A stretch of 64,000 bases of DNA from Candidatus Bathyarchaeia archaeon (GCA_038883775.1 JAVZLM010000007.1:1-64000); one strand, 5' to 3'. Counted from the stretch's first letter, positions 55,725-64,000 are shown. Numbers and translations: made by a program. The notes: generated from the letters alone by a model not told the origin.

Positions 55725-55952
55725 TTATGTTATAAGTTCGATTCTTCTTTTTCCACGAACCATAGAAGTTGTCCGTATTTTTCCAGCGACCTCTAACCTC
55801 ATAAGAAACTCGTTAAAGTCCTTGAAGCCCAAATCCTTAAACTCCTCACTTAAAACCTCAAAGAGCTCAGTATCCGTCATGGCGCCCTTCTTTTTCAAGA
55901 CTTCTAAAAGAACATAATAGGCTGGATGTGTCTTCCAAGTTTTAACTGGCAA
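55725..55952 (-). CDS. Small wHTH protein downstream of cdc48
   Basis: 'LKKKGAMTDTELFE.L...FNEFLMRLEVAGKI'. Confidence 0.75.
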   Translation of the reverse strand: MPVKTWKTHPAYYVLLEVLKKKGAMTDTELFEVLSEEFKDLGFKDFNEFLMRLEVAGKIRTTSMVRGKRRIELIT

Positions 55953-55964
55953 ATTTACGCACTC

Positions 55965-58136
55965 CTAAGCCACCGGTGTTGCTGGCTTTTGAACTTGCCT
56001 CACTTGCTGCATGAAGCCTTTGTACCATTTTTCCATGTCAGGAGTTATTGAAGGCCCAATTTTTTTCATTGCTTCTTGAAAATCAGCCAATGTAACCTCT
56101 TTAGCGTTTACATCTCTTCTCAAGGCGTGCATAGCTGCTTCTCTGCAGAGGGCTTCTATGTCTGCGCCAGAATAATTCTTGGTTATGGCGGCTAACTGCT
56201 CTAGGTTTACGTCTTTGGATAATGGCATGTTTCTTGTGTGAATTTTGAATATTTGAAGCCGAGTTTTTTCGTCAGGTTCTGGCACATATATCAGCCTATC
56301 AAATCTTCCAGGTCGAAGCACTGCTGGGTCAATAATGTCAGGCCTGTTCGTAGCCGCTATGACAACGACGTCCTCTAAAGTTAGGATTCCATCCATTTCA
56401 GTTAGGAGTTGGCTGATTACGCGCTCTGTTACGCCGCTGTCTGCAAAACCTAAGCCTCTTCGAGGCACAAGGGAATCCATCTCATCAAAGAATATTACGG
56501 CTGGTGCTGCCATTCGGGCTTTTCTGAAAACTTCCCTTATCGCTTTTTCAGATTCGCCAACCCATTTTGAAAAAACTTCTGGACCCTTAATTGTTATGAA
56601 GTTTGCTTCGCTTTCTGTTGCCACAGCCCTAGCCAACAAAGTCTTACCACAACCAGGCGGTCCATAGAGAAGTATGCCCTTTGGAGGCTTTATTCCAAGC
56701 CTCTTGAAAATTTCAGGGTTTTTAAGGGGCCATTCCACAGCTTCTTTAAGTTCCTGTTTGACTTCTTCCAGCCCGCCGATGTCGTCCCAGTGGATTGTCG
56801 GAACTTCTATGTAGACTTCCCGCATGGCTGTTGGCGTCACTTCCTTGTAGGCGTTTATGAAATCCTCCATTTTCACTTCCATTTTTTCTAAAACACTTGG
56901 TGGTATGCGCTCCTCTTCAAGGTTTATTTGGGGCAAGTATCTGCGGAGGGCTTTCATGGCTGTTTCTCTGCATAAAGCTGCCAAATCTGCACCTGTATAG
57001 CCATGAGTTATTTCAGAAAGCTTCTTTAAGTCAACATCCTCAGCCAAAGGCATCCCACGAGTGTGAATTTGTAATATTTCATATCTTCCCCGCTTGTCTG
57101 GAACGCCTATCTCGATTTCTCTGTCAAACCTGCCTGGTCTCCGAAGGGCTGGGTCAAGGGCACCGGGTCTGTTAGTGGCGCCAATAACTATGACATTTCC
57201 TCTTCCAGATAAACCGTCCATTAGGGCTAGAAGTTGCGCGACAACTCGCCTTTCAACTTCGCCAGTCACTTCTTCCCGTTTTGGCGCTATGGCATCCAAC
57301 TCGTCAATGAATATTATGCTTGGAGCGTTCTGTTGGGCTTGCTGGAAGATTTCTCTAAGTCTGGCTTCGGATTCGCCATAAAATTTGCTCATTATTTCAG
57401 GTCCGTTTATTGAGAAGAAATTCGCTTCAGACTCATTAGCAACAGCCCTAGCCAACAAAGTCTTACCACAACCAGGCGGTCCATGAAGCAATACGCCTTT
57501 CGGAGGTTCTATTCCAAGCCTTTGGAAAAGCTCCGGATGCCTTAATGGAAGTTCAACCATTTCGCGTACTCTTTGGATTTCCTCTTGCAGTCCGCCGATG
57601 TCTTCGTATGTTGTTCTTGGGAGCCCTCGCCCTTCGGGTGCTGGTTCGTTCAAGATTGTTAGTCTAGTTTCTGGAGTAACTTTAACTATGCCGTGGGGGC
57701 GAGTTTTTGACACAGTAAAGGGTATAGCGTGTCCAAGCATCATAACCAGCGTGGTGTCACCTTCCACAAGGGTTCTTTCCATGAGGCGGTTTTTGACAAA
57801 GTTTGTGAAGTCTTCGTCAACGTTTAATCTCATGTCCACAGGCGCCAATGTTATGCTTATGGCGTTTTTGACTTTGGCTGGTCTTGCGATTACGTATTCG
57901 TTTATTGCTACTCCAGCGTTTTTGCGGGTGAAACCGTCTATTCTTATAATGTCTCTGTTTTGGTCTTCGCTGTAGGCTGGCCAGGCTATGGCTGAAGTTG
58001 ACCTTTTACCCACTATTTCTATGACATCGCCCGCTGAAATGCCCAGTTTTTCCATTGTTCTTTGGTCTATACGGGCTATTCCTCTTCCGACATCCCTCTG
58101 TTTTGCGTCGCCAACACGCAATTGCACTTCACTCAA
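55965..58136 (-). CDS. cdc48: CDC48/VCP AAA+ ATPase
   Basis: N-domain '[11 protein letters not shown]', two AAA modules ([10 protein letters not shown]) and SRH 'RPGRFDR' twice. Confidence 0.97.
56623..57484. repeat. 43-bp exact direct repeat (copies at 56623-56665 and 57442-57484)
   Basis: ACAGCCCTAGCCAACAAAGTCTTACCACAACCAGGCGGTCCAT occurs at both Walker A regions of cdc48. Confidence 0.92.
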
Positions 58137-58220: not shown

Positions 58221-58496
58221 TTATCTGCTCACCCTGCGCACCATAATCGTTTGCACCTGGCTTATTTCACTCACTGCTTCAAGCTTCTTTTCAAATTCAT
58301 CAAGCATGCCAGTTTTGTCTTCTGGAAATTTTATGTGCGCTATTAATGCTTTCAAGCCAAAGGCTATGGGTTCCTCACCATATCCATAAACGGATGCAAA
58401 CTCTGGTAAACATTTCTCAATTTTCTTTTTCAAATCAGTAAAGTCCACGATTACGTCTGTTGGAAATATTTTGTATGAGATTATTACATTACCCAT
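58221..58496 (-). CDS. ef1b: Elongation factor 1-beta
   Basis: 'KIFP', 'EEPIAFGLKAL', 91 aa. Confidence 0.93.
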   Translation of the reverse strand: MGNVIISYKIFPTDVIVDFTDLKKKIEKCLPEFASVYGYGEEPIAFGLKALIAHIKFPEDKTGMLDEFEKKLEAVSEISQVQTIMVRRVSR

Positions 58497-58630: not shown

Positions 58631-58909
58631 TTAAGAACGCTCACGATATTCTTCTATTTTTTTCACAAGCCTTTCCACATTTTCGGGTTTCTCGGCAAAG
58701 GCAAGAAGTTTTTCGCTGTCTGGTCCAATAAGGATAAAAAGGGGTTGGAGGTAGAGGCGGGCAAGTTGGGACCAAACGTGGCTTGTTGGTCCAACGGTTT
58801 CTAGAAAGAGCAAAGCGATGCCGTCCATTTTTGAATCGACTATTTTTTTGGCTATTTTTGAAAGCCATTCTTCTTCGGTGTTTTCCACAGTTTTCTGATC
58901 CAAGCTCAT
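58631..58909 (-). CDS. Small conserved hypothetical protein, last gene of the membrane operon
   Basis: 92 aa, 'ALLFLETVGP', 15 nt downstream of the previous gene. Confidence 0.7.
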   Translation of the reverse strand: MSLDQKTVENTEEEWLSKIAKKIVDSKMDGIALLFLETVGPTSHVWSQLARLYLQPLFILIGPDSEKLLAFAEKPENVERLVKKIEEYRERS

Positions 58910-58924
58910 AGAAATTTACCTTTG

Positions 58925-59635
58925 CTATTTTCGTCTCATGGCGTAGGCTATTGCAATCACAGCCAACACAACTGCTATTATGGCAGCGTATGGTTGCGGC
59001 TGGAAGTACTGCAAGTATATTCCTATTAAGAACCCGACCCTTGTCATTATTGTGTTTGCGAATAAAGCTCCGAAGCCAACCATCATTCCATATACTCCTA
59101 TTAGGAAGAACGCTCTGTATATCTTATGCACCACTGTTGATTTTCCTTCAGCCTTTGGAAATATAGTGAATATGAAATAGGTTAGTCCACCGAGGGTTAT
59201 CAGAACCATGAGCCAGTTGTTAAAGGTTGCTTGCAGATCTGTGGGTGTCCAAAGGGGTACTATGGCGGCATTTATTTGTTTTATTATATTAGCCATCGGG
59301 GCGGTTCTTAAGGCTAGGGCTGCACCTACAGCAACGTTTACGCCTATGCCATACCTTGCAACCCAATAATACTTCTTTGAGTATTTAAAGAAGAATGTAA
59401 GCCCTAACAACAATGGTATTATCAGATGCCAGTTTGCCACAACATCTTTGCCCAATGGAACAAAGGCTGTTTTGTTTAGGCTGTCTAGCGAAAGCGCTAT
59501 GGAATATCCTGCTGCAGTTCCAACAAACAAGTGTTCAGCAATGCGGTATAAGACATTATCTTTGTATACAAAGCTGTAAAGCCACACTACTATAATGGCT
59601 GCAAGCCAAGCGCCCATTAATTCTGGCGTGATCAT
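58925..59635 (-). CDS. Multi-TM membrane protein (~7 TM)
   Basis: 'YSFVYKDNVLYRIAEHLFVGTAAGY' and 'MVGFGALFANTIMTR'. ATGA overlap with the upstream gene and a GAGGTGA SD. Confidence 0.85.
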   Translation of the reverse strand: MITPELMGAWLAAIIVVWLYSFVYKDNVLYRIAEHLFVGTAAGYSIALSLDSLNKTAFVPLGKDVVANWHLIIPLLLGLTFFFKYSKKYYWVARYGIGVNVAVGAALALRTAPMANIIKQINAAIVPLWTPTDLQATFNNWLMVLITLGGLTYFIFTIFPKAEGKSTVVHKIYRAFFLIGVYGMMVGFGALFANTIMTRVGFLIGIYLQYFQPQPYAAIIAVVLAVIAIAYAMRRK

Positions 59636-60486
59636 TTCTTCTCACCTCTCTTAGAAAGCTTTGTGTAGGCAAACACTATGTTTCCCAAGATAATGAACAG
59701 CAGAATAAGTCCGTGGGCAAAGCTTTGAGCATCCATGGAAGCAATGCCTAAACCCTTTCTTCCGACAAGAAGTTCGTATTCGGCTGCTGCCCTCTGTCCA
59801 GTAAGCATACCTATTGCTTGTCCAGCACCCACATAGGGTTCGACGGAAGGCCCTATAACGCTAAGAACGCAAAATAGGAGGGGCGTGTGGTATGGTGTGT
59901 ACCATTGGCGAACATACCATGCGAAAGTGTCTGTTCCAGATGATGCAACAAGAACTAGCTTATAGTCTGCAGCAGTATTAGCTTCTTGTATTAAAGGCAA
60001 ATTCGAAGTCGGGTTGCCGTAGTTATCTACTGCAACAGTTCCAGTAATACTACTTGCTAATGATGCTAATGCTGACTCACCTCCTGCAATGTATCCTAAG
60101 AAGACGTAGTCTTCTCCGTAAGTTTTGCCTTCAAACAAGTCAGGAGCAGAAGACTGCAAAAACTGAAATGCAAGTGGACCATAAGTTGCCATCGAAAGAA
60201 ACACTAGTTTACAATTTTTCTCAAATAAGTGTTTCATGAGAGCTATGACTTGAGGCTCTAATTCAGCTCTGGCAGCGACCTCATAGTATATTTCCACAAG
60301 AACTGGTGAACCAGGCGGAAGCTTGCTATCATCTTCTATGTAGTCATAAACTGCCTTTGTGCGCGATGAAATTCCTATTGGAAGCCCCATAGGGTATATG
60401 AGAGGAGCTATTATCAGAATTATCAGCAACGTGTACAATAATTGCCGTGTGCTTAATACTTTATCAATTTTTTCTATCGCCGTCAT
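59632..60486 (-). CDS. Membrane protein: TM, alpha/beta soluble domain, TM
   Basis: 'YGEDYVFLGYIAGGE', 'AAEYELL' and 'MDAQSFAH'. Start at ATG 60486 after GGAGGG. Confidence 0.85.
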   Translation of the reverse strand: MTAIEKIDKVLSTRQLLYTLLIILIIAPLIYPMGLPIGISSRTKAVYDYIEDDSKLPPGSPVLVEIYYEVAARAELEPQVIALMKHLFEKNCKLVFLSMATYGPLAFQFLQSSAPDLFEGKTYGEDYVFLGYIAGGESALASLASSITGTVAVDNYGNPTSNLPLIQEANTAADYKLVLVASSGTDTFAWYVRQWYTPYHTPLLFCVLSVIGPSVEPYVGAGQAIGMLTGQRAAAEYELLVGRKGLGIASMDAQSFAHGLILLFIILGNIVFAYTKLSKRGEKK

Positions 60487-60488
60487 TT

Positions 60489-61157
60489 CTATTCCCTCCT
60501 CCCCATCCAAGTGACTTCTTTACCCAAGAGAAGCCTTAGACCCAGTATTATTATTCCAAAGCCTAAACCCATAGTGATGGGTCTGAATGCTGCGGTGTTT
60601 GGAACAGTCATTATCCAGTCTCTGACGGGGAGGAAACCGCTCCATATTATTTCACCAAGGCTTGTGTTACCGAGCATTATGAGGATAGCTACGATTAGCA
60701 AGAGAAGCGCTGGTGGGTTCCTAACTCTGAAAGCTCTATATGAGGCGGAAGCTATGTAGAAGACAAGGATAGAATACATTGCAGCATCCGAAGGCGCAAA
60801 TATATAAGTGTAGAGCCACTGGAAGTTAGTTTGTGTAGTTATTGCGATTCCAGAAGATAGGGCATAAACTGCAAAGGCGACCATTATTACCTCCATAACA
60901 ATTACTATGCCACTAAAGAATACTTGTTTCGGCTCTTTTTTCCGACTCTGATTTACGTGGTACCTTAATATGTCTATGCCTCCAACTATGGCGGCTATCG
61001 CCGTTATTACAACAACCCAGTCGGTCAGAGCCTTATTACCAGTGTCAAAGGCTTTCTTCACATCGCTGCTTATGTAGAAGAAGTAGAAGAGCACCATCAG
61101 CACTATTATGACGGTTACAATGACTTGGGGAATATTTCTCCTTATTACAGCACCCAT
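60489..61157 (-). CDS. Multi-TM membrane protein (~6 TM)
   Basis: 'AMYSILVFYIASASYRAFRVR' and 'WIMTVPNTAAFR'. GGGGTGA SD before ATG 61157. Confidence 0.85.
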   Translation of the reverse strand: MGAVIRRNIPQVIVTVIIVLMVLFYFFYISSDVKKAFDTGNKALTDWVVVITAIAAIVGGIDILRYHVNQSRKKEPKQVFFSGIVIVMEVIMVAFAVYALSSGIAITTQTNFQWLYTYIFAPSDAAMYSILVFYIASASYRAFRVRNPPALLLLIVAILIMLGNTSLGEIIWSGFLPVRDWIMTVPNTAAFRPITMGLGFGIIILGLRLLLGKEVTWMGRRE

Positions 61158-61169
61158 TCGTTTCACCCC

Positions 61170-61985
61170 TTACTTGAGCAGTTCTGTTGCCAGTTTAATG
61201 CCCAGCGGCAGCAAGGCAAGACCAATCACTATTAGAACCCATGAAAGCAACTTTCCTATGTCCTGTCCTCTAATAGATGATAAAGTTACATTGTCTCCAG
61301 AAGCCAAAGCACCAGCAGCGAAAATTTCCTCGCCTATGAAGGCATAATCAGCAGCTAAGACGAAGAAGGGAATTTGAGTTTCTCGGGCTGTTCCAGCAAT
61401 TTGGAAAGCTCCGATCATAGTGCCAGCTTCAACAAATATTAGGGATTCAGCCCAGAAAGGCCCAACTATTATGTTTGTTCCAGCATTTTCTCTCTGAATT
61501 GTCGCTTGAACAGCAGAAGCAAAAGCAAACTGCTGGTCCGTCAAATATCTCACATTATAGGTAACATTATAAAGTTCTGGTTTCCCAGCAGAATAATATG
61601 CATCACGAATAACCTCTTCTTCCGCCGCTATAAGCTCTGGCACCCCAAGCGTTGAAACAAGATTCGCACCGTATTTACCGCAAAGTTTCGCCACGTGATT
61701 TAGCACTCCCAAACCAGCCAAGTATTGAGGGGCATGAGCAGTGGATAATGGACCATATCCGAGAGTGAAGTGAACTGGTCTGCCCATTTCGACGGATCTT
61801 GCCACACCTTCTTCTATAGCGTCAAAGGCAGCCATCTTCCTAACAGGAATTGGTTTGCCTCCCTTAGCTTTCCGCATGAAATAGTAGCCTGCAAGCATAA
61901 GAAACATTAGCAAGACAAAAGAGTAGGCTCCAGATTTCTGATAAATAATCTGGTAAATAATGTCTTTCCATATGTCCATTGCCAT
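61170..61985 (-). CDS. DUF6754-like membrane protein
   Basis: 'RKMAAFDAIEEGVARSVEMGRPVHF..G', 'QIAGT...QIPFF...DY..IGEEIFAAGA..S'. AGGAG SD before ATG 61985. The family name is from recall. Confidence 0.75.
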   Translation of the reverse strand: MAMDIWKDIIYQIIYQKSGAYSFVLLMFLMLAGYYFMRKAKGGKPIPVRKMAAFDAIEEGVARSVEMGRPVHFTLGYGPLSTAHAPQYLAGLGVLNHVAKLCGKYGANLVSTLGVPELIAAEEEVIRDAYYSAGKPELYNVTYNVRYLTDQQFAFASAVQATIQRENAGTNIIVGPFWAESLIFVEAGTMIGAFQIAGTARETQIPFFVLAADYAFIGEEIFAAGALASGDNVTLSSIRGQDIGKLLSWVLIVIGLALLPLGIKLATELLK

Positions 61986-62036
61986 TTTTCTCCTTTTTAT
62001 TTTTGAAAAACAATGTTCCATATAGAAAGCATTTAT

Positions 62037-62051
62037 TATATAAGATTTTCC
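62037..62051 (-). promoter_or_regulatory. Putative BRE/TATA for the membrane operon
   Basis: Minus strand reads GAAAATC-TTATATAA ~50 nt upstream of ATG 61985. Confidence 0.5.
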
Positions 62052-62234
62052 AGACATCATAGCAAAAAGAACAGAAAAAGGTCTTTATAGACAAAAAACG
62101 AAACGGAAATAGATGCAATTCACGAAAGAAACACGCTTCATAGAATAACGCCATTTTCATTAATTTTTCAATACTTTCAAGAAATAACATATATAACTCT
62201 CCAAATTCTTATAACTCAGAAAACGCTGGTCAAA

Positions 62235-64000
62235 ATGGAGCCAAAATTCATCCTAGCAACAGACGTGGGAAGCACCACAACCAAAGCCAGATTCTTCGGA
62301 AAAATTAGGGGCGACTGGAAATTTCTATCCAGCGGAGAAGCACCAACAACAGTTGAAAAACCAGTAGAAGACGTTACAATGGGGATAAGAAACGCCGTAA
62401 GAGAAGTGGAAGAGCTTACAGGGCATAAGATAATAGACTACGAAAGCGAAGAATTGCGGTTCCTAATGCCTCACAAAGGAGGAAACACTGGAATAGACGT
62501 TTACGTCTCAACAAGCAGCGCAGGCGGAGGGCTCCAAATGCTCGTTCAAGGAGTTGTAAAAAGCATAACCGCAGAAAGCGCCCAAAGGGCAGCTCTCGGA
62601 GCTGGAGCCATAGTAATGGATGTTCTTTCCGTAGATGATGAGCGAGACACTTACGAGAAAATCAATACTTTAAGGTTTCTAAGACCGGACATAGTACTGC
62701 TTGCAGGCGGAGTTGACGGTGGAACAAAATCGCATGTATTGGAAATGGCTGAAATATTGGCCATGGCTAAACCTCGCCCGAGATTTGAGATAGAATTTCT
62801 CCTACCAGTAGTTTATGCTGGAAATATAGACGCGAGAGAAGATGTAAAGAGGACATTATGCGAAAATTTTGACGTAAGAATCACAGACAACATTAGACCC
62901 ACATTAGAAGTTGAAAAAGTAGAACCTGCAAGAGATGCAATTTTAGGATTATTTATGGAGCATGTGATGGCGCATGCCCCAGGATATGAAAAGCTCAAAA
63001 AACTCGTTTCAACAAACATTATGCCGACACCAGCCGCCGAAGGAATGATGGTTAGAAAATTTTCGGAGCTAAAATGTGTAAACAGCATCGGTGTTGGACT
63101 TGGAGGAGCCACAACAAACGTATACTCATATTTTGATGGAAGATTCCTAAGAACGGTAAGCGCAAACTTGGGAATGAGCTACAGCGTAGGCAATGTCCTA
63201 AAAGAAGCAAGCATTAAAAACGTGAAAAAATGGACCCCATTTCCAATAAGCGAAGAAGAAATCATGAGCATAGTCTACAATAAAATGATAAGACCCACAA
63301 CCATTCCAATGACATTTGAAGATTTAGTCATAGAACATGCCCTCGCCAGAGAATCAATAAGAATGGCATTCAACCACCACAAATATCTTGCAAGAGAACT
63401 CAAAGGTGTCAAAAAGGAAAGAACAATCTCCGACATTTTCGAAGAGGTCAAAACTGAAGACACTTACTTGGAAATGTACAGAATCAACTATATAATAGGC
63501 ACTGGCGGTCTCCTCTCAAGGGCTCCGAGAAGAAATCAATCAATGATGATGTTAACTGACGCCTTTCAACCAGTAGGTTTCACTGCCCTAGCTCAAGACA
63601 GCGTCTTCATGATGCCACATTTAGGCGTACTTTCCACAATTCACCCAGAAATAGCCTTACACATATTTGAAAAAGAATGCCTTATATATCTTGGGACGTT
63701 AATAGCGGGAGCTGGCAGAAGTAAGTTAGGCGCAAAAGTTGCAAGCATAACATTGGAGTATGATAATGGAAAAAGGGAAAACTTCGAATTACCTTTTGGC
63801 AAAATAGTGACAGTAGAAGCTCCATATGAGACAACCGTAAAGGTTAAAGTATCCCCTTCCAGTGAATTTGACTTTGGAGCAGGTTTCGGAAGAAACGTTG
63901 AAAAAACTGTTAGAGGCGGAGTAGTCGGTTTAGTGTTTGATGGAAGAGGAAGACCAATATACATGCCAGAAGATGAAAAAGAAAGATTCAACACCATATT
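62235..64000 (+). CDS. GlmL/MutL(glutamate mutase L)-like ASKHA/actin-fold ATPase, 3'-partial (>588 aa); absent from the ORF track
   Basis: Hand translation gives MEPKFILATDVGSTTTKARFF...EAPTTVEKP.EDV...STSSAGGGLQM...LLAGGVDGG...MPTPAAEG...GVGLGGATTNVYS...RTVSANLGMSYS...IGTGGLLS...FDGRGRP. I saw no stop before the window end. Confidence 0.88.
   Translation, partial: MEPKFILATDVGSTTTKARFFGKIRGDWKFLSSGEAPTTVEKPVEDVTMGIRNAVREVEELTGHKIIDYESEELRFLMPHKGGNTGIDVYVSTSSAGGGLQMLVQGVVKSITAESAQRAALGAGAIVMDVLSVDDERDTYEKINTLRFLRPDIVLLAGGVDGGTKSHVLEMAEILAMAKPRPRFEIEFLLPVVYAGNIDAREDVKRTLCENFDVRITDNIRPTLEVEKVEPARDAILGLFMEHVMAHAPGYEKLKKLVSTNIMPTPAAEGMMVRKFSELKCVNSIGVGLGGATTNVYSYFDGRFLRTVSANLGMSYSVGNVLKEASIKNVKKWTPFPISEEEIMSIVYNKMIRPTTIPMTFEDLVIEHALARESIRMAFNHHKYLARELKGVKKERTISDIFEEVKTEDTYLEMYRINYIIGTGGLLSRAPRRNQSMMMLTDAFQPVGFTALAQDSVFMMPHLGVLSTIHPEIALHIFEKECLIYLGTLIAGAGRSKLGAKVASITLEYDNGKRENFELPFGKIVTVEAPYETTVKVKVSPSSEFDFGAGFGRNVEKTVRGGVVGLVFDGRGRPIYMPEDEKERFNTI

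Follow-up and report, generated by a model that had tools for sequence, protein, structure and literature searches.

To our knowledge, every ATP-driven transporter is powered by an ATPase of the P-loop (ABC, ArsA), P-type or rotary kind. ECF transporters of group II have one energising module that is common to several substrate units, and type VII ABC systems (MacB, LolCDE, FtsEX) use the energy of ATP for work outside the membrane. Proteins of the GlmL/MutL family are described as chaperones that reactivate glutamate mutase (PMC4682846). In glycerol-dehydratase reactivase, the alpha subunit joins an Hsp70-like ATPase domain to a swivelling domain, which holds a partner, the beta subunit, and lets it go when ATP is hydrolysed (PMC7674605).

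Here we describe a locus at the end of a 64,000-nucleotide stretch of DNA (hereafter the window) from a Candidatus Bathyarchaeia archaeon. It is one copy of an undescribed seven-gene, two-module system that is widespread in bacteria and archaea and that may represent a new kind of ATP-driven transporter. Literature searches by the family names DUF6754, PF20539, TIGR01319 and NF040744 returned no published description of this system, and PF13941 was not mentioned among the matches listed. Our working model, to which we assign nearly but not quite an even chance, is that the locus encodes a new ATP-driven solute importer. Its features are as follows.

Gene A: 61170 to 61985, minus strand, DUF6754 subunit, 271 aa counted from the ATG preceded by a Shine-Dalgarno (SD) site
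Gene B: 60489 to 61157, minus strand, polytopic subunit, 222 aa, six TM-like segments
Gene C: 59632 to 60486, minus strand, bitopic subunit, 284 aa
Gene D: 58925 to 59635, minus strand, polytopic subunit, 236 aa, five to seven TM-like segments
Gene E: 58631 to 58909, minus strand, small protein, 92 aa, no TM-like segment
Divergent spacer: 61986 to 62234, no strand, 249 nt, AT-rich, with TATA-like elements
Gene F: 62235 to 64000 in the window and on to contig base 64067, plus strand, GlmL/MutL-family ASKHA-fold ATPase, 610 aa
Gene G: contig positions 64064-65203, beyond the window, 384 aa, directly after F

An ORF check of the window found all five minus-strand genes where an earlier note on this DNA had put them. 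That note had described the genes as closely packed, with SD sites and gaps of -4 to 15 nt, and each part of this description was confirmed. The start codons lie at 61985 (A), 61157 (B), 60486 (C), 59635 (D) and 58909 (E), a purine-rich site of the GGAG/GGTG/AGGT type can be read upstream of every one of these genes, and the gaps in A-B-C-D-E order are +12, +2, -4 and +15 nt, the D start overlapping the C stop by 4 nt. Judging from the extent of the ORF, A might alternatively start at 62060. The spacer, previously estimated at about 250 nt, is presumed to be a putative promoter region for both operons, and GC content falls to 0.37 across positions 62000-62499. A sigma-70 scan yielded 14 promoter-like sites versus 8.5 expected and 0 terminators, a result that is uninformative for an archaeon. 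Reading beyond base 64000 completed F, which had been recognized as an ASKHA ATPase of more than 588 aa, and revealed the seventh gene G, whose ATG start overlaps the TGA stop of F as ATGA. The locus sequence is also matched in hot-spring metagenome contigs, with no RNA dataset listed.

The proposal that the membrane genes form one unit is supported by their order. Of the 78 loci analysed for gene order, which come from many bacterial and archaeal phyla and together hold 92 complete cassettes, 71 contain one or more with all of A>B>C>D; among the others, a contig end truncates six, and the seventh carries B as two matches. Because this gene order recurs across 78 loci and many phyla, the arrangement is far beyond chance, which supports the conclusion that A>B>C>D is a single conserved unit. 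At least 612 loci were counted among species-representative genomes, and DUF6754 has 2,114 cluster representatives at E ≤ 1e-10. Lineages with the system include Bathyarchaeia, Zixibacteria, WOR-3, Cloacimonadota and thermophilic Bacillota. Copy number can be high, with seven cassettes for a single F-G set in one genome (G080) and 10 or more A matches in each of three Bacillota genomes.

All four membrane proteins had been called DUF6754-like. This holds for A, which matches PF20539 (DUF6754) in Pfam at 235.3 bits (cut-off 27, E 8.4e-70, profile positions 7-254 of 257), but not for B, C and D, which, like E, matched no Pfam or NCBIfam family in profile searches. A simple hydropathy scan agrees with the layouts proposed earlier, wherein A and C each carry a single TM-like segment near either terminus of a soluble domain and B and D are polytopic, with five to seven such segments. 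The suggestion that A/C and B/D are paralogous pairs, however, found no support at the sequence level (BLASTP best E 1.4 and hhalign probability 23% for A/C; 0.31 and 0.6% for B/D).

In its predicted structure, A consists of two TM segments and, between them, a Rossmann-like domain of about 190 aa in the cytoplasm. Fold comparison of this model shows the Rossmann-like fold to be generic, without a specific relative, and a search against PDB sequences gave nothing meaningful. Both termini of A lie outside the cell and the Rossmann-like domain in the cytoplasm, because homologues place additional domains outside both TM segments: among 19 examined, a signal peptide precedes the first TM together with a BamB-like propeller in four and with fn3 in two, and PKD follows the last TM in two. 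A is also the best conserved membrane subunit, its seven paralogs in G080 being on average 40% identical versus 30-33% for B, C and D, which fits a docking partner common to cassettes.

B invariably follows A in the loci examined and has a conserved SAAYRAFRAR-type motif past its fourth TM-like segment, but its 27 members share no consistent Pfam family, a single member giving a weak match to TMD0_ABC (E 0.0068). For C, the distribution of K/R residues around the TM segments suggests an internal N-terminus, a TM segment, an outward alpha/beta domain of about 210 aa, a second TM segment and a K/R-rich C-terminal tail inside. Apart from one weak single match, no Pfam family was found among 26 members of C, and all 30 of its neighbours in the protein atlas are unnamed; members of D likewise show no consistent Pfam family. 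As far as sequence can tell, the earlier remark that known transporter motifs are absent appears correct, in that Pfam and NCBIfam searches, including members of B, C and D, matched no subunit to a known transporter family.

F matches the whole of PF13941 ('MutL') in Pfam, with 394 bits against a cut-off of 27 (E 7.8e-118, profile positions 1-450 of 450), and has an additional C-terminal part of about 130 aa. Its scores fall below the NCBIfam equivalog cut-offs for GlmL (NF040745, 220 vs 475) and Or-4 (NF040744, 227 vs 600), as well as that of the subfamily glmL_fam (157, cut-off 204). An alignment of 17 F sequences from both domains of life has a mean column identity of 64% and contains invariant glycine-rich and Asp motifs, among them D10 G12 S13 T14 T15 K17, G158 G159 D161 G163 and G290 G291 A292 T293 T294, which we take to be the ASKHA phosphate and adenosine motifs. 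Among PDB sequences, F has no match at E ≤ 0.01.

Could the membrane operon merely adjoin F, which would then be a normal GlmL whose B12-dependent mutase is encoded elsewhere? Five genes with B12-binding domains are present in the genome, all on other contigs, and in G080 the nearest cassette lies about 79 kb from F, as this explanation would allow. The sub-cut-off equivalog scores of F speak against it, as does the absence of the glutamate-mutase E subunit (Met_asp_mut_E) from the genome, which is 91% complete. The earlier note had seen no such mutase in the window, and the 12 kb downstream of F contain G, amidohydrolases, a permease, FEN1 and other genes, and no glmS/glmE, oraS/oraE or other B12-dependent mutase. 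These observations support the view that no B12 mutase accounts for F.

Evidence also comes from the distribution of the two gene sets. F/G lie within 10 kb of a cassette in 22 of the 78 loci, in both domains of life, from Thermoproteota to Bacillota, Zixibacteria and Planctomycetota, and a full-length G occurs elsewhere in 46 of the 49 genomes without nearby F/G (E below 1e-130). Among 201 genomes of the archaeon's own phylum, three have A and G, one has A only (as a fragment of 58 residues at the end of a contig), none has G only and 197 have neither; the corresponding counts for 251 Bacillota genomes are 17, 2, 1 and 231, although these two-by-two tables overstate significance because related genomes are not independent. 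Adjacency and near-perfect phyletic co-occurrence thus support the functional tie between the membrane genes and the GlmL-like ATPase that had been proposed for this locus. The idea of unrelated neighbours is already contradicted by the A/G co-occurrence data, and we leave it next to no probability.

The seven-gene system comprises two modules, a membrane module A-B-C-D and a second module E-F-G. E was described earlier as a soluble protein of 92 aa ending the membrane run, and its size and hydropathy agree with this. Its place as fifth gene of that run holds here but not in general, since E is found directly after D in eight cases, in archaea, and directly before F in eight, in bacteria. E is a candidate adaptor linking the two modules. 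A profile rescan did not detect E in any G080 locus, and a 182-aa ORF upstream of F in that genome was rejected as a diverged E on finding no match to the E profile. An apparent E-F fusion (L042) was rejected as an over-extended GC-rich ORF, and apparent F-G fusions in L014 and L088 and B-C fusions in five loci were discarded on account of an internal stop in each.

The predicted structure of G (pLDDT 84.9) and its fold matches indicate a barrel-sandwich hybrid domain, a swivelling beta/beta/alpha domain and a KOW domain. Only weak KOW matches were obtained against PDB sequences, and all neighbours of G in the protein atlas are unnamed. G is as well conserved as F, its alignment contains the glycine-rich invariant motifs TEGFG and NGATQ-RAG-RPE, and F-type and G-type parts are fused in a single uninterrupted ORF in all four paralogs checked. 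Swivelling His-domains carry the phosphoryl group in PTS Enzyme I and rifampin phosphotransferase, and F might by analogy be a kinase-type ASKHA enzyme whose phosphoryl group is carried by the swivelling domain of G to a substrate or to A. There is, however, no conserved His on this domain and no His among the 39 invariant G columns listed, and we regard such a phosphoryl relay or group translocation as very improbable.

In our working model of a solute importer, A-B-C-D would assemble into a heteromeric complex that spans the membrane with about 16 TM helices, and E-F-G would be a cytoplasmic module. The outer domain of C would capture the substrate, B and D would build the transmembrane path, the cytoplasmic domain of A would couple the cassette to F-G, and ATP turnover in F-G would drive the cycle. 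One E-F-G set could be common to several substrate-specific cassettes, as is the energiser of group II ECF systems. Transport itself, its direction and substrates, ATP hydrolysis and the docking of E-F-G on A-B-C-D are all parts of this model that we infer.

The genes beside the cassettes offer hints of substrates. Among 72 immediate neighbours scanned are nine amidohydrolases and six metallopeptidases, against a background of about 13-14 amidohydrolase genes per ~1.7 Mb genome, a rough enrichment given that the background comprises two genomes and that 19 of 91 candidate neighbour ORFs were removed by hand. Two amidohydrolases also lie directly downstream of G at the present locus. This surplus suits the earlier suggestion of peptides or amino acids. 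Small nitrogen compounds that contain amides are the likely substrates, for instance peptides, cyclic amides, and N-acyl or carbamoyl amino acids. Binding proteins of Opp/Dpp systems (SBP_bac_5) coexist with cassettes in all five genomes checked, and so the system is no replacement for Opp/Dpp.

Some features of G and A could be read differently. The glycine-rich invariant motifs of G resemble a ligand or catalytic site more than a docking surface, and thus F-G could be an enzyme or chaperone rather than a motor. It might act on the Rossmann-like domain of A, loading, exchanging or resetting a cofactor or a subunit there, with A-B-C-D acting as an ATP-independent membrane enzyme or ion-coupled transporter. 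F and G appear to reproduce the ATPase and swivelling domain of the reactivases introduced above, and a single F-G set per genome for many cassettes would suit a shared maintenance factor too. Yet the list of invariant residues in the A alignment holds no His or Cys hinting at a corrinoid or metal cofactor, no cofactor-synthesis gene recurs beside cassettes among the neighbours scanned, reactivase structures are missing among the fold matches listed for G, and F scores far under both equivalog cut-offs. We consider this explanation unlikely.

Likewise, in diderm phyla A can bear large propeller, fn3 or PKD domains that face outward (8 of the 19 long A proteins examined). Together with ancient, position-specific triplicate cassettes, these could point to an envelope machine, in which ATP energy passes via A and C to outward domains for export, extraction or envelope assembly rather than nutrient import, much as in the type VII ABC systems named at the outset. 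In keeping with this, 102 of the 150 best A representatives exceed 310 aa, the tandem cassettes are position-specific paralogs that have stayed together in Zixibacteria and Ignavibacteria alike, and some cassette neighbours encode surface proteins (Big_1, Invasin_D3, Wzi). The A extensions are missing, however, from archaeal and Bacillota versions, whose neighbours are chiefly cytoplasmic amidohydrolases and peptidases, and the seven cassettes dispersed in a 1.7-Mb archaeal genome, each adjoining different catabolic enzymes, look like substrate-specific uptake. An envelope function accordingly strikes us as distinctly unlikely.

Returning to the importer model, the present locus may be the first representative of a new class of primary active transporter. 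In this class, an ASKHA ATPase and its swivelling-domain partner, in place of a P-loop, P-type or rotary ATPase, would power many substrate-specific four-subunit cassettes as one shared soluble E-F-G motor. Transfer would have carried the system into a dozen or more phyla of bacteria and archaea, mainly uncultured heterotrophs. We advance this fuller claim tentatively, being on balance somewhat doubtful of it. If true, an ASKHA-fold motor acting on a membrane complex would be a new principle of energy coupling. The system is common, the lineages that have it are dominant in anoxic sediments, hot springs and digesters, and some genomes devote 7 to 10 or more cassettes to it. Solving its function would assign roles to six uncharacterized protein families in one step and a second, mutase-independent role to the GlmL/MutL family, and would probably alter how nitrogen and peptide uptake is read from the genomes of uncultured microbes.

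Of the known systems compared, Rnf/Nqr complexes share only a likeness between their peripheral subunits RnfC/NqrA and the barrel-sandwich domain of G, with a Pfam match below cut-off; the locus yielded no match to Rnf/Nqr membrane-subunit families, flavin domains or Fe-S domains. Group II ECF and ABC importers share with our system the use of many membrane units per cytoplasmic ATPase module and, probably, an outward domain that could bind substrate. In contrast, F has an ASKHA fold rather than a P-loop, and none of the seven proteins matched an ABC ATPase, ECF-T or S-component family in Pfam or NCBIfam. GlmL/MutL and Or-4 (PF13941) resemble F over the whole profile and belong to the same fold family, but F differs in its equivalog scores, in its C-terminal addition, in being always paired with G, and in occurring with DUF6754, without an adjacent mutase and without glmE in the genome. 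Finally, although no reactivase is among the listed fold matches of G, F and G appear to supply the same ATPase and swivelling parts as DdrAB/GdrAB. In our system, these parts are separate proteins that are fused only in paralogs, no B12 enzyme is involved, and their presumed client is embedded in the membrane.

The five minus-strand ORFs that the earlier note had read in this stretch are borne out by our own reading, in which a purine-rich GGAG, GGTG or AGGT site precedes each of the start codons chosen there and the intergenic gaps from A to E measure +12, +2, -4 and +15 nucleotides. Hydropathy likewise agrees with polytopic B and D, a soluble E, and a soluble part of ~200 amino acids between the terminal transmembrane (TM)-like segments of both A and C.

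Genes of the locus that lie within the window
61170-61985, minus strand: A, ORF with a TM-like segment at each end
60489-61157, minus strand: B, ORF with six TM-like segments
59632-60486, minus strand: C, ORF with a TM-like segment at each end
58925-59635, minus strand: D, ORF with five to seven TM-like segments
58631-58909, minus strand: E, ORF with no TM-like segment

An AT-rich spacer of 249 nucleotides separates A from the plus-strand gene F, and a T-rich tract lies 3′ of E. The window is part of a 154.6-kb contig, on which F (610 amino acids in total) reaches its stop at base 64067, beyond the window end, and is directly followed by G (384 amino acids), whose ATG overlaps the F stop codon TGA as ATGA and is also where the protein-atlas copy of G starts. 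Both A and F are single-copy in this genome. The closest database relative of A, at 97% identity, comes from a Candidatus Bathyarchaeales archaeon, and the sequencing runs that contain the stretch are hot-spring metagenomes.

Genes 3′ of G encode a 132-amino-acid TM protein on the opposite strand, two amidohydrolases, an amino-acid permease, a FEN1-type nuclease and others. The 132-amino-acid ORF (contig bases 65200-65598, minus strand, outside the window), which carries TM-like segments and is convergent on G, matches no family, has no counterpart in the loci searched from three genomes (G080, G125 and G093), and is probably not part of the seven-gene system. Just downstream of E is elongation factor 1-beta (58221-58496, minus strand; NF001670, E 4e-22). 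Two further minus-strand genes are a 723-amino-acid protein (55965-58136) that, by eye alone, resembles a CDC48/VCP-type AAA ATPase with two domains, and a 75-amino-acid ORF (55725-55952) with a weak PqqD-like match (E 4.6e-4) that is under the cut-off.

The suggestion that four of the proteins are DUF6754-like stands for A (PF20539, E 8.4e-70) and falls for B, C and D, which, like E, match no family in Pfam or NCBIfam. F matches PF13941 ‘MutL’ (E 7.8e-118) and has a mean column identity of 64% across 17 bacterial and archaeal sequences, with invariant motifs that we take to be the phosphate-1, phosphate-2 and adenosine motifs of the ASKHA fold; it also has ~130 additional C-terminal amino acids. 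Assignment of F as a GlmL or Or-4 equivalog was rejected, with scores of 220 versus a cut-off of 475 and 227 versus 600, respectively, and 157 versus 204 for glmL_fam. To our knowledge, the F family is known solely as a mutase accessory. The prior observation that the window has no B12-dependent mutase continues to hold beyond the window end: there is no mutase among the genes downstream of G, Met_asp_mut_E has no match in the assembly (1.69 Mb, 91% complete), and the five genes for B12-binding domains in this genome are all on other contigs.

The predicted structure of G (pLDDT 84.9) has three domains. In all four of the paralogs checked, F-like and G-like parts are fused in uninterrupted ORFs of 937-1148 amino acids, which supports F and G acting as one unit. 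These fused paralogs (loci L092-L095, from genomes G236, G230, G226 and G219), which join an F-like ATPase to a G-like barrel-sandwich and swivel part, seem to have a role independent of DUF6754. A GT4 glycosyltransferase comes after one of them, one adjoins ornithine cyclodeaminase, and one carries an N-terminal zinc ribbon.

A profile built from 19 A homologs detected at least 612 confirmed A loci in species-representative genomes, and we surveyed gene order in the best 78 of these by tblastn with the window proteins and archaeal paralogs. Carriers among these 78 include Bacillota, Zixibacteria, WOR-3, Cloacimonadota, Ignavibacteria, Planctomycetota, Gemmatimonadota and other bacteria, and, among archaea, Desulfurococcaceae/Sulfolobales, Bathyarchaeia and Methanomethylicia. 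The system is also encoded by Symbiobacterium thermophilum and Anaerobranca gottschalkii relatives. At least one complete cassette in the order A-B-C-D is present in 71 of the 78 (92 complete cassettes altogether); six of the other loci stop 0-341 bases from the last gene, and the seventh has B split in two matches with the order kept. Within the phylum of this archaeon the A family is rare (4 of 201 sampled genomes), and one of these four, G080, carries seven dispersed cassettes. The B gene of one of them (L010:7430-8015; G080:C1 ~1053430-1054015) has an in-frame TAA within its most conserved motif (…FYIT*ASYRAFRAR…), which points either to decay of this cassette or to a mistake in the assembly.

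Tandem arrays of two or three cassettes occur at several loci. Seven loci from Zixibacteria and Ignavibacteria (L046, L049, L054-L057 and L071) have three in a fixed order, with one clade per position. A tree built from 34 A sequences of multi-cassette loci groups those of Zixibacteria and Ignavibacteria by array position across genomes, with strong support, and therefore the tandem arrays are old and maintained. Fixed triplicates may stand for three separate, fixed specificities or for one larger hetero-assembly; they also keep alive the alternative that the system is an envelope machine.

F and G are neighbors at every place where they were found. One or both lie within 10 kb of a cassette at 22 of the 78 best loci, in bacteria as well as archaea, and genome G125 has the same divergent layout as the window. 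The single F-G pair of G080 is ~79 kb from the closest cassette. When the 49 genomes from this survey that lack F and G at the locus were searched in full with a G profile, 46 proved to encode a full-length G elsewhere (E below 1e-130); a 0.7-Mb assembly is among the other three.

Sampled genomes with matches to A and G (related genomes, not phylogenetically independent)
Phylum of this archaeon, 201 genomes: both A and G, 3; A only, 1; G only, 0; neither, 197
Bacillota, 251 genomes: both A and G, 17; A only, 2; G only, 1; neither, 231

The A-only case in the first set is a piece of A of 58 residues at the end of a contig, and one of the two in Bacillota is a weak partial match. We give no P-value because related genomes are not independent; the pattern recurs in two distant phyla. 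Co-occurrence of the membrane genes with the GlmL-like gene is thus upheld by gene distance, by whole-genome searches and by both phylum counts. E lies immediately ahead of F in eight cases and immediately after D in eight. Of the 19 loci that contain F/G and have the F-upstream position on the contig, an E profile finds E in 17; none was found in G080. Some Bacillota loci (L022:5930-20489; L029, L038, L042 and L044) place one cassette amid up to three F-G pairs, in the order F G' A B C D F G' E F G, where the G' copies (~440-490 amino acids) bear an inserted second barrel-sandwich segment. It is established that the locus is one example of a two-module, seven-gene system.

The orientation of A can be read from its relatives, of which 2,114 were recovered at E ≤ 1e-10 when 1.84 billion cluster representatives were searched by profile. 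Among the best 150, 102 exceed 310 amino acids. Many of the 19 long relatives inspected start with a signal-peptide-like segment; four have BamB/PQQ-like propellers and two have fn3 repeats ahead of the first TM, two have PKD domains past the last TM, and the extensions of the remaining 11 have no Pfam match. A is therefore oriented with both termini on the outer side and the Rossmann-like domain in the cytoplasm, with which its K/R distribution agrees. The propellers, fn3 repeats and PKD domains on the outward side likewise keep the envelope-machine alternative alive. C has a conserved DRR-type motif ahead of TM1 and a K/R-rich C-terminal tail, and by the positive-inside rule its ends would be inside and its soluble domain outside. 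The K/R-rich loops of B, on alternating sides, fit six predicted TMs with both ends inside.

Immediate cassette neighbors (72 of 91 candidate ORFs, after 19 near-duplicate loci or ORFs antisense within cassette genes were dropped by hand) include nine Amidohydro_1/3, three M20, two M28, one M19, one DUF885 and one beta-lactamase-family protein. Two archaeal genomes checked have ~13-14 amidohydrolase genes each, so enrichment beside cassettes is, as a rough figure only, tenfold or more. Each of the seven G080 cassettes adjoins different enzymes, among them amidohydrolases, M20 and M28 peptidases, creatininase, acyl-CoA dehydrogenase, a GDPD phosphodiesterase and an OadA-like carboxyltransferase with biotin carrier. 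Downstream of the F-G pair in G080 come a DppA-type D-aminopeptidase and an Orn/DAP decarboxylase, and in the window's locus two amidohydrolases come after G. Opp/Dpp-type binding proteins are also present in all five cassette genomes checked. At L006:7543-9496 (G080) and L020:8493-9899 (a Methanomethylicia MAG), an OadA/PycB-like carboxyltransferase is directly upstream of the cassette on the same strand and an S-Me-THD-like protein is downstream; L006 has a separate biotin-carrier protein too. These cassettes may be specialized for a carboxylated or cyclic-amide substrate.

Many cassettes beside differing catabolic enzymes, together with a single conserved ATPase module, make up the pattern of a transporter family that shares one energizer and lead us to favor an importer. 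Specifically, we tentatively propose, at slightly less than even odds, that A-B-C-D and E-F-G form an ATP-driven system for the import of small nitrogen compounds with amide groups. One soluble, highly conserved ATPase module would then be the energizer common to many cassettes, and the cytoplasmic domain of A, with its invariant charged residues, would offer a natural docking site. Residues of A that are invariant include R63, E66, R165, E180, D213, Y214, E220 and D242. Mean identity among the G080 paralogs is 40% for A and 30-33% for the other cassette subunits. The power stroke would be ATP-driven grip and release of the A domain by F-G.

A and F alone among the subunits belong to named families, that of A being a DUF, and no solved structure related by sequence was found for A, F or G. 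The system was not found in open-access full text or bioRxiv, though subscription papers may differ; we conclude that A-B-C-D/E-F-G is new as a system, and we infer its function. In mechanism, the nearest known parallel to F-G is the B12-enzyme reactivase, where a partner subunit is held and then let go by an Hsp70-like ATPase domain working with a swiveling domain (PMC7674605); GlmL itself is described as a reactivating chaperone (PMC4682846). By analogy, this precedent supports grip and release of the A domain as the putative power stroke of an importer, and it also backs the rival view that F-G merely maintains A.
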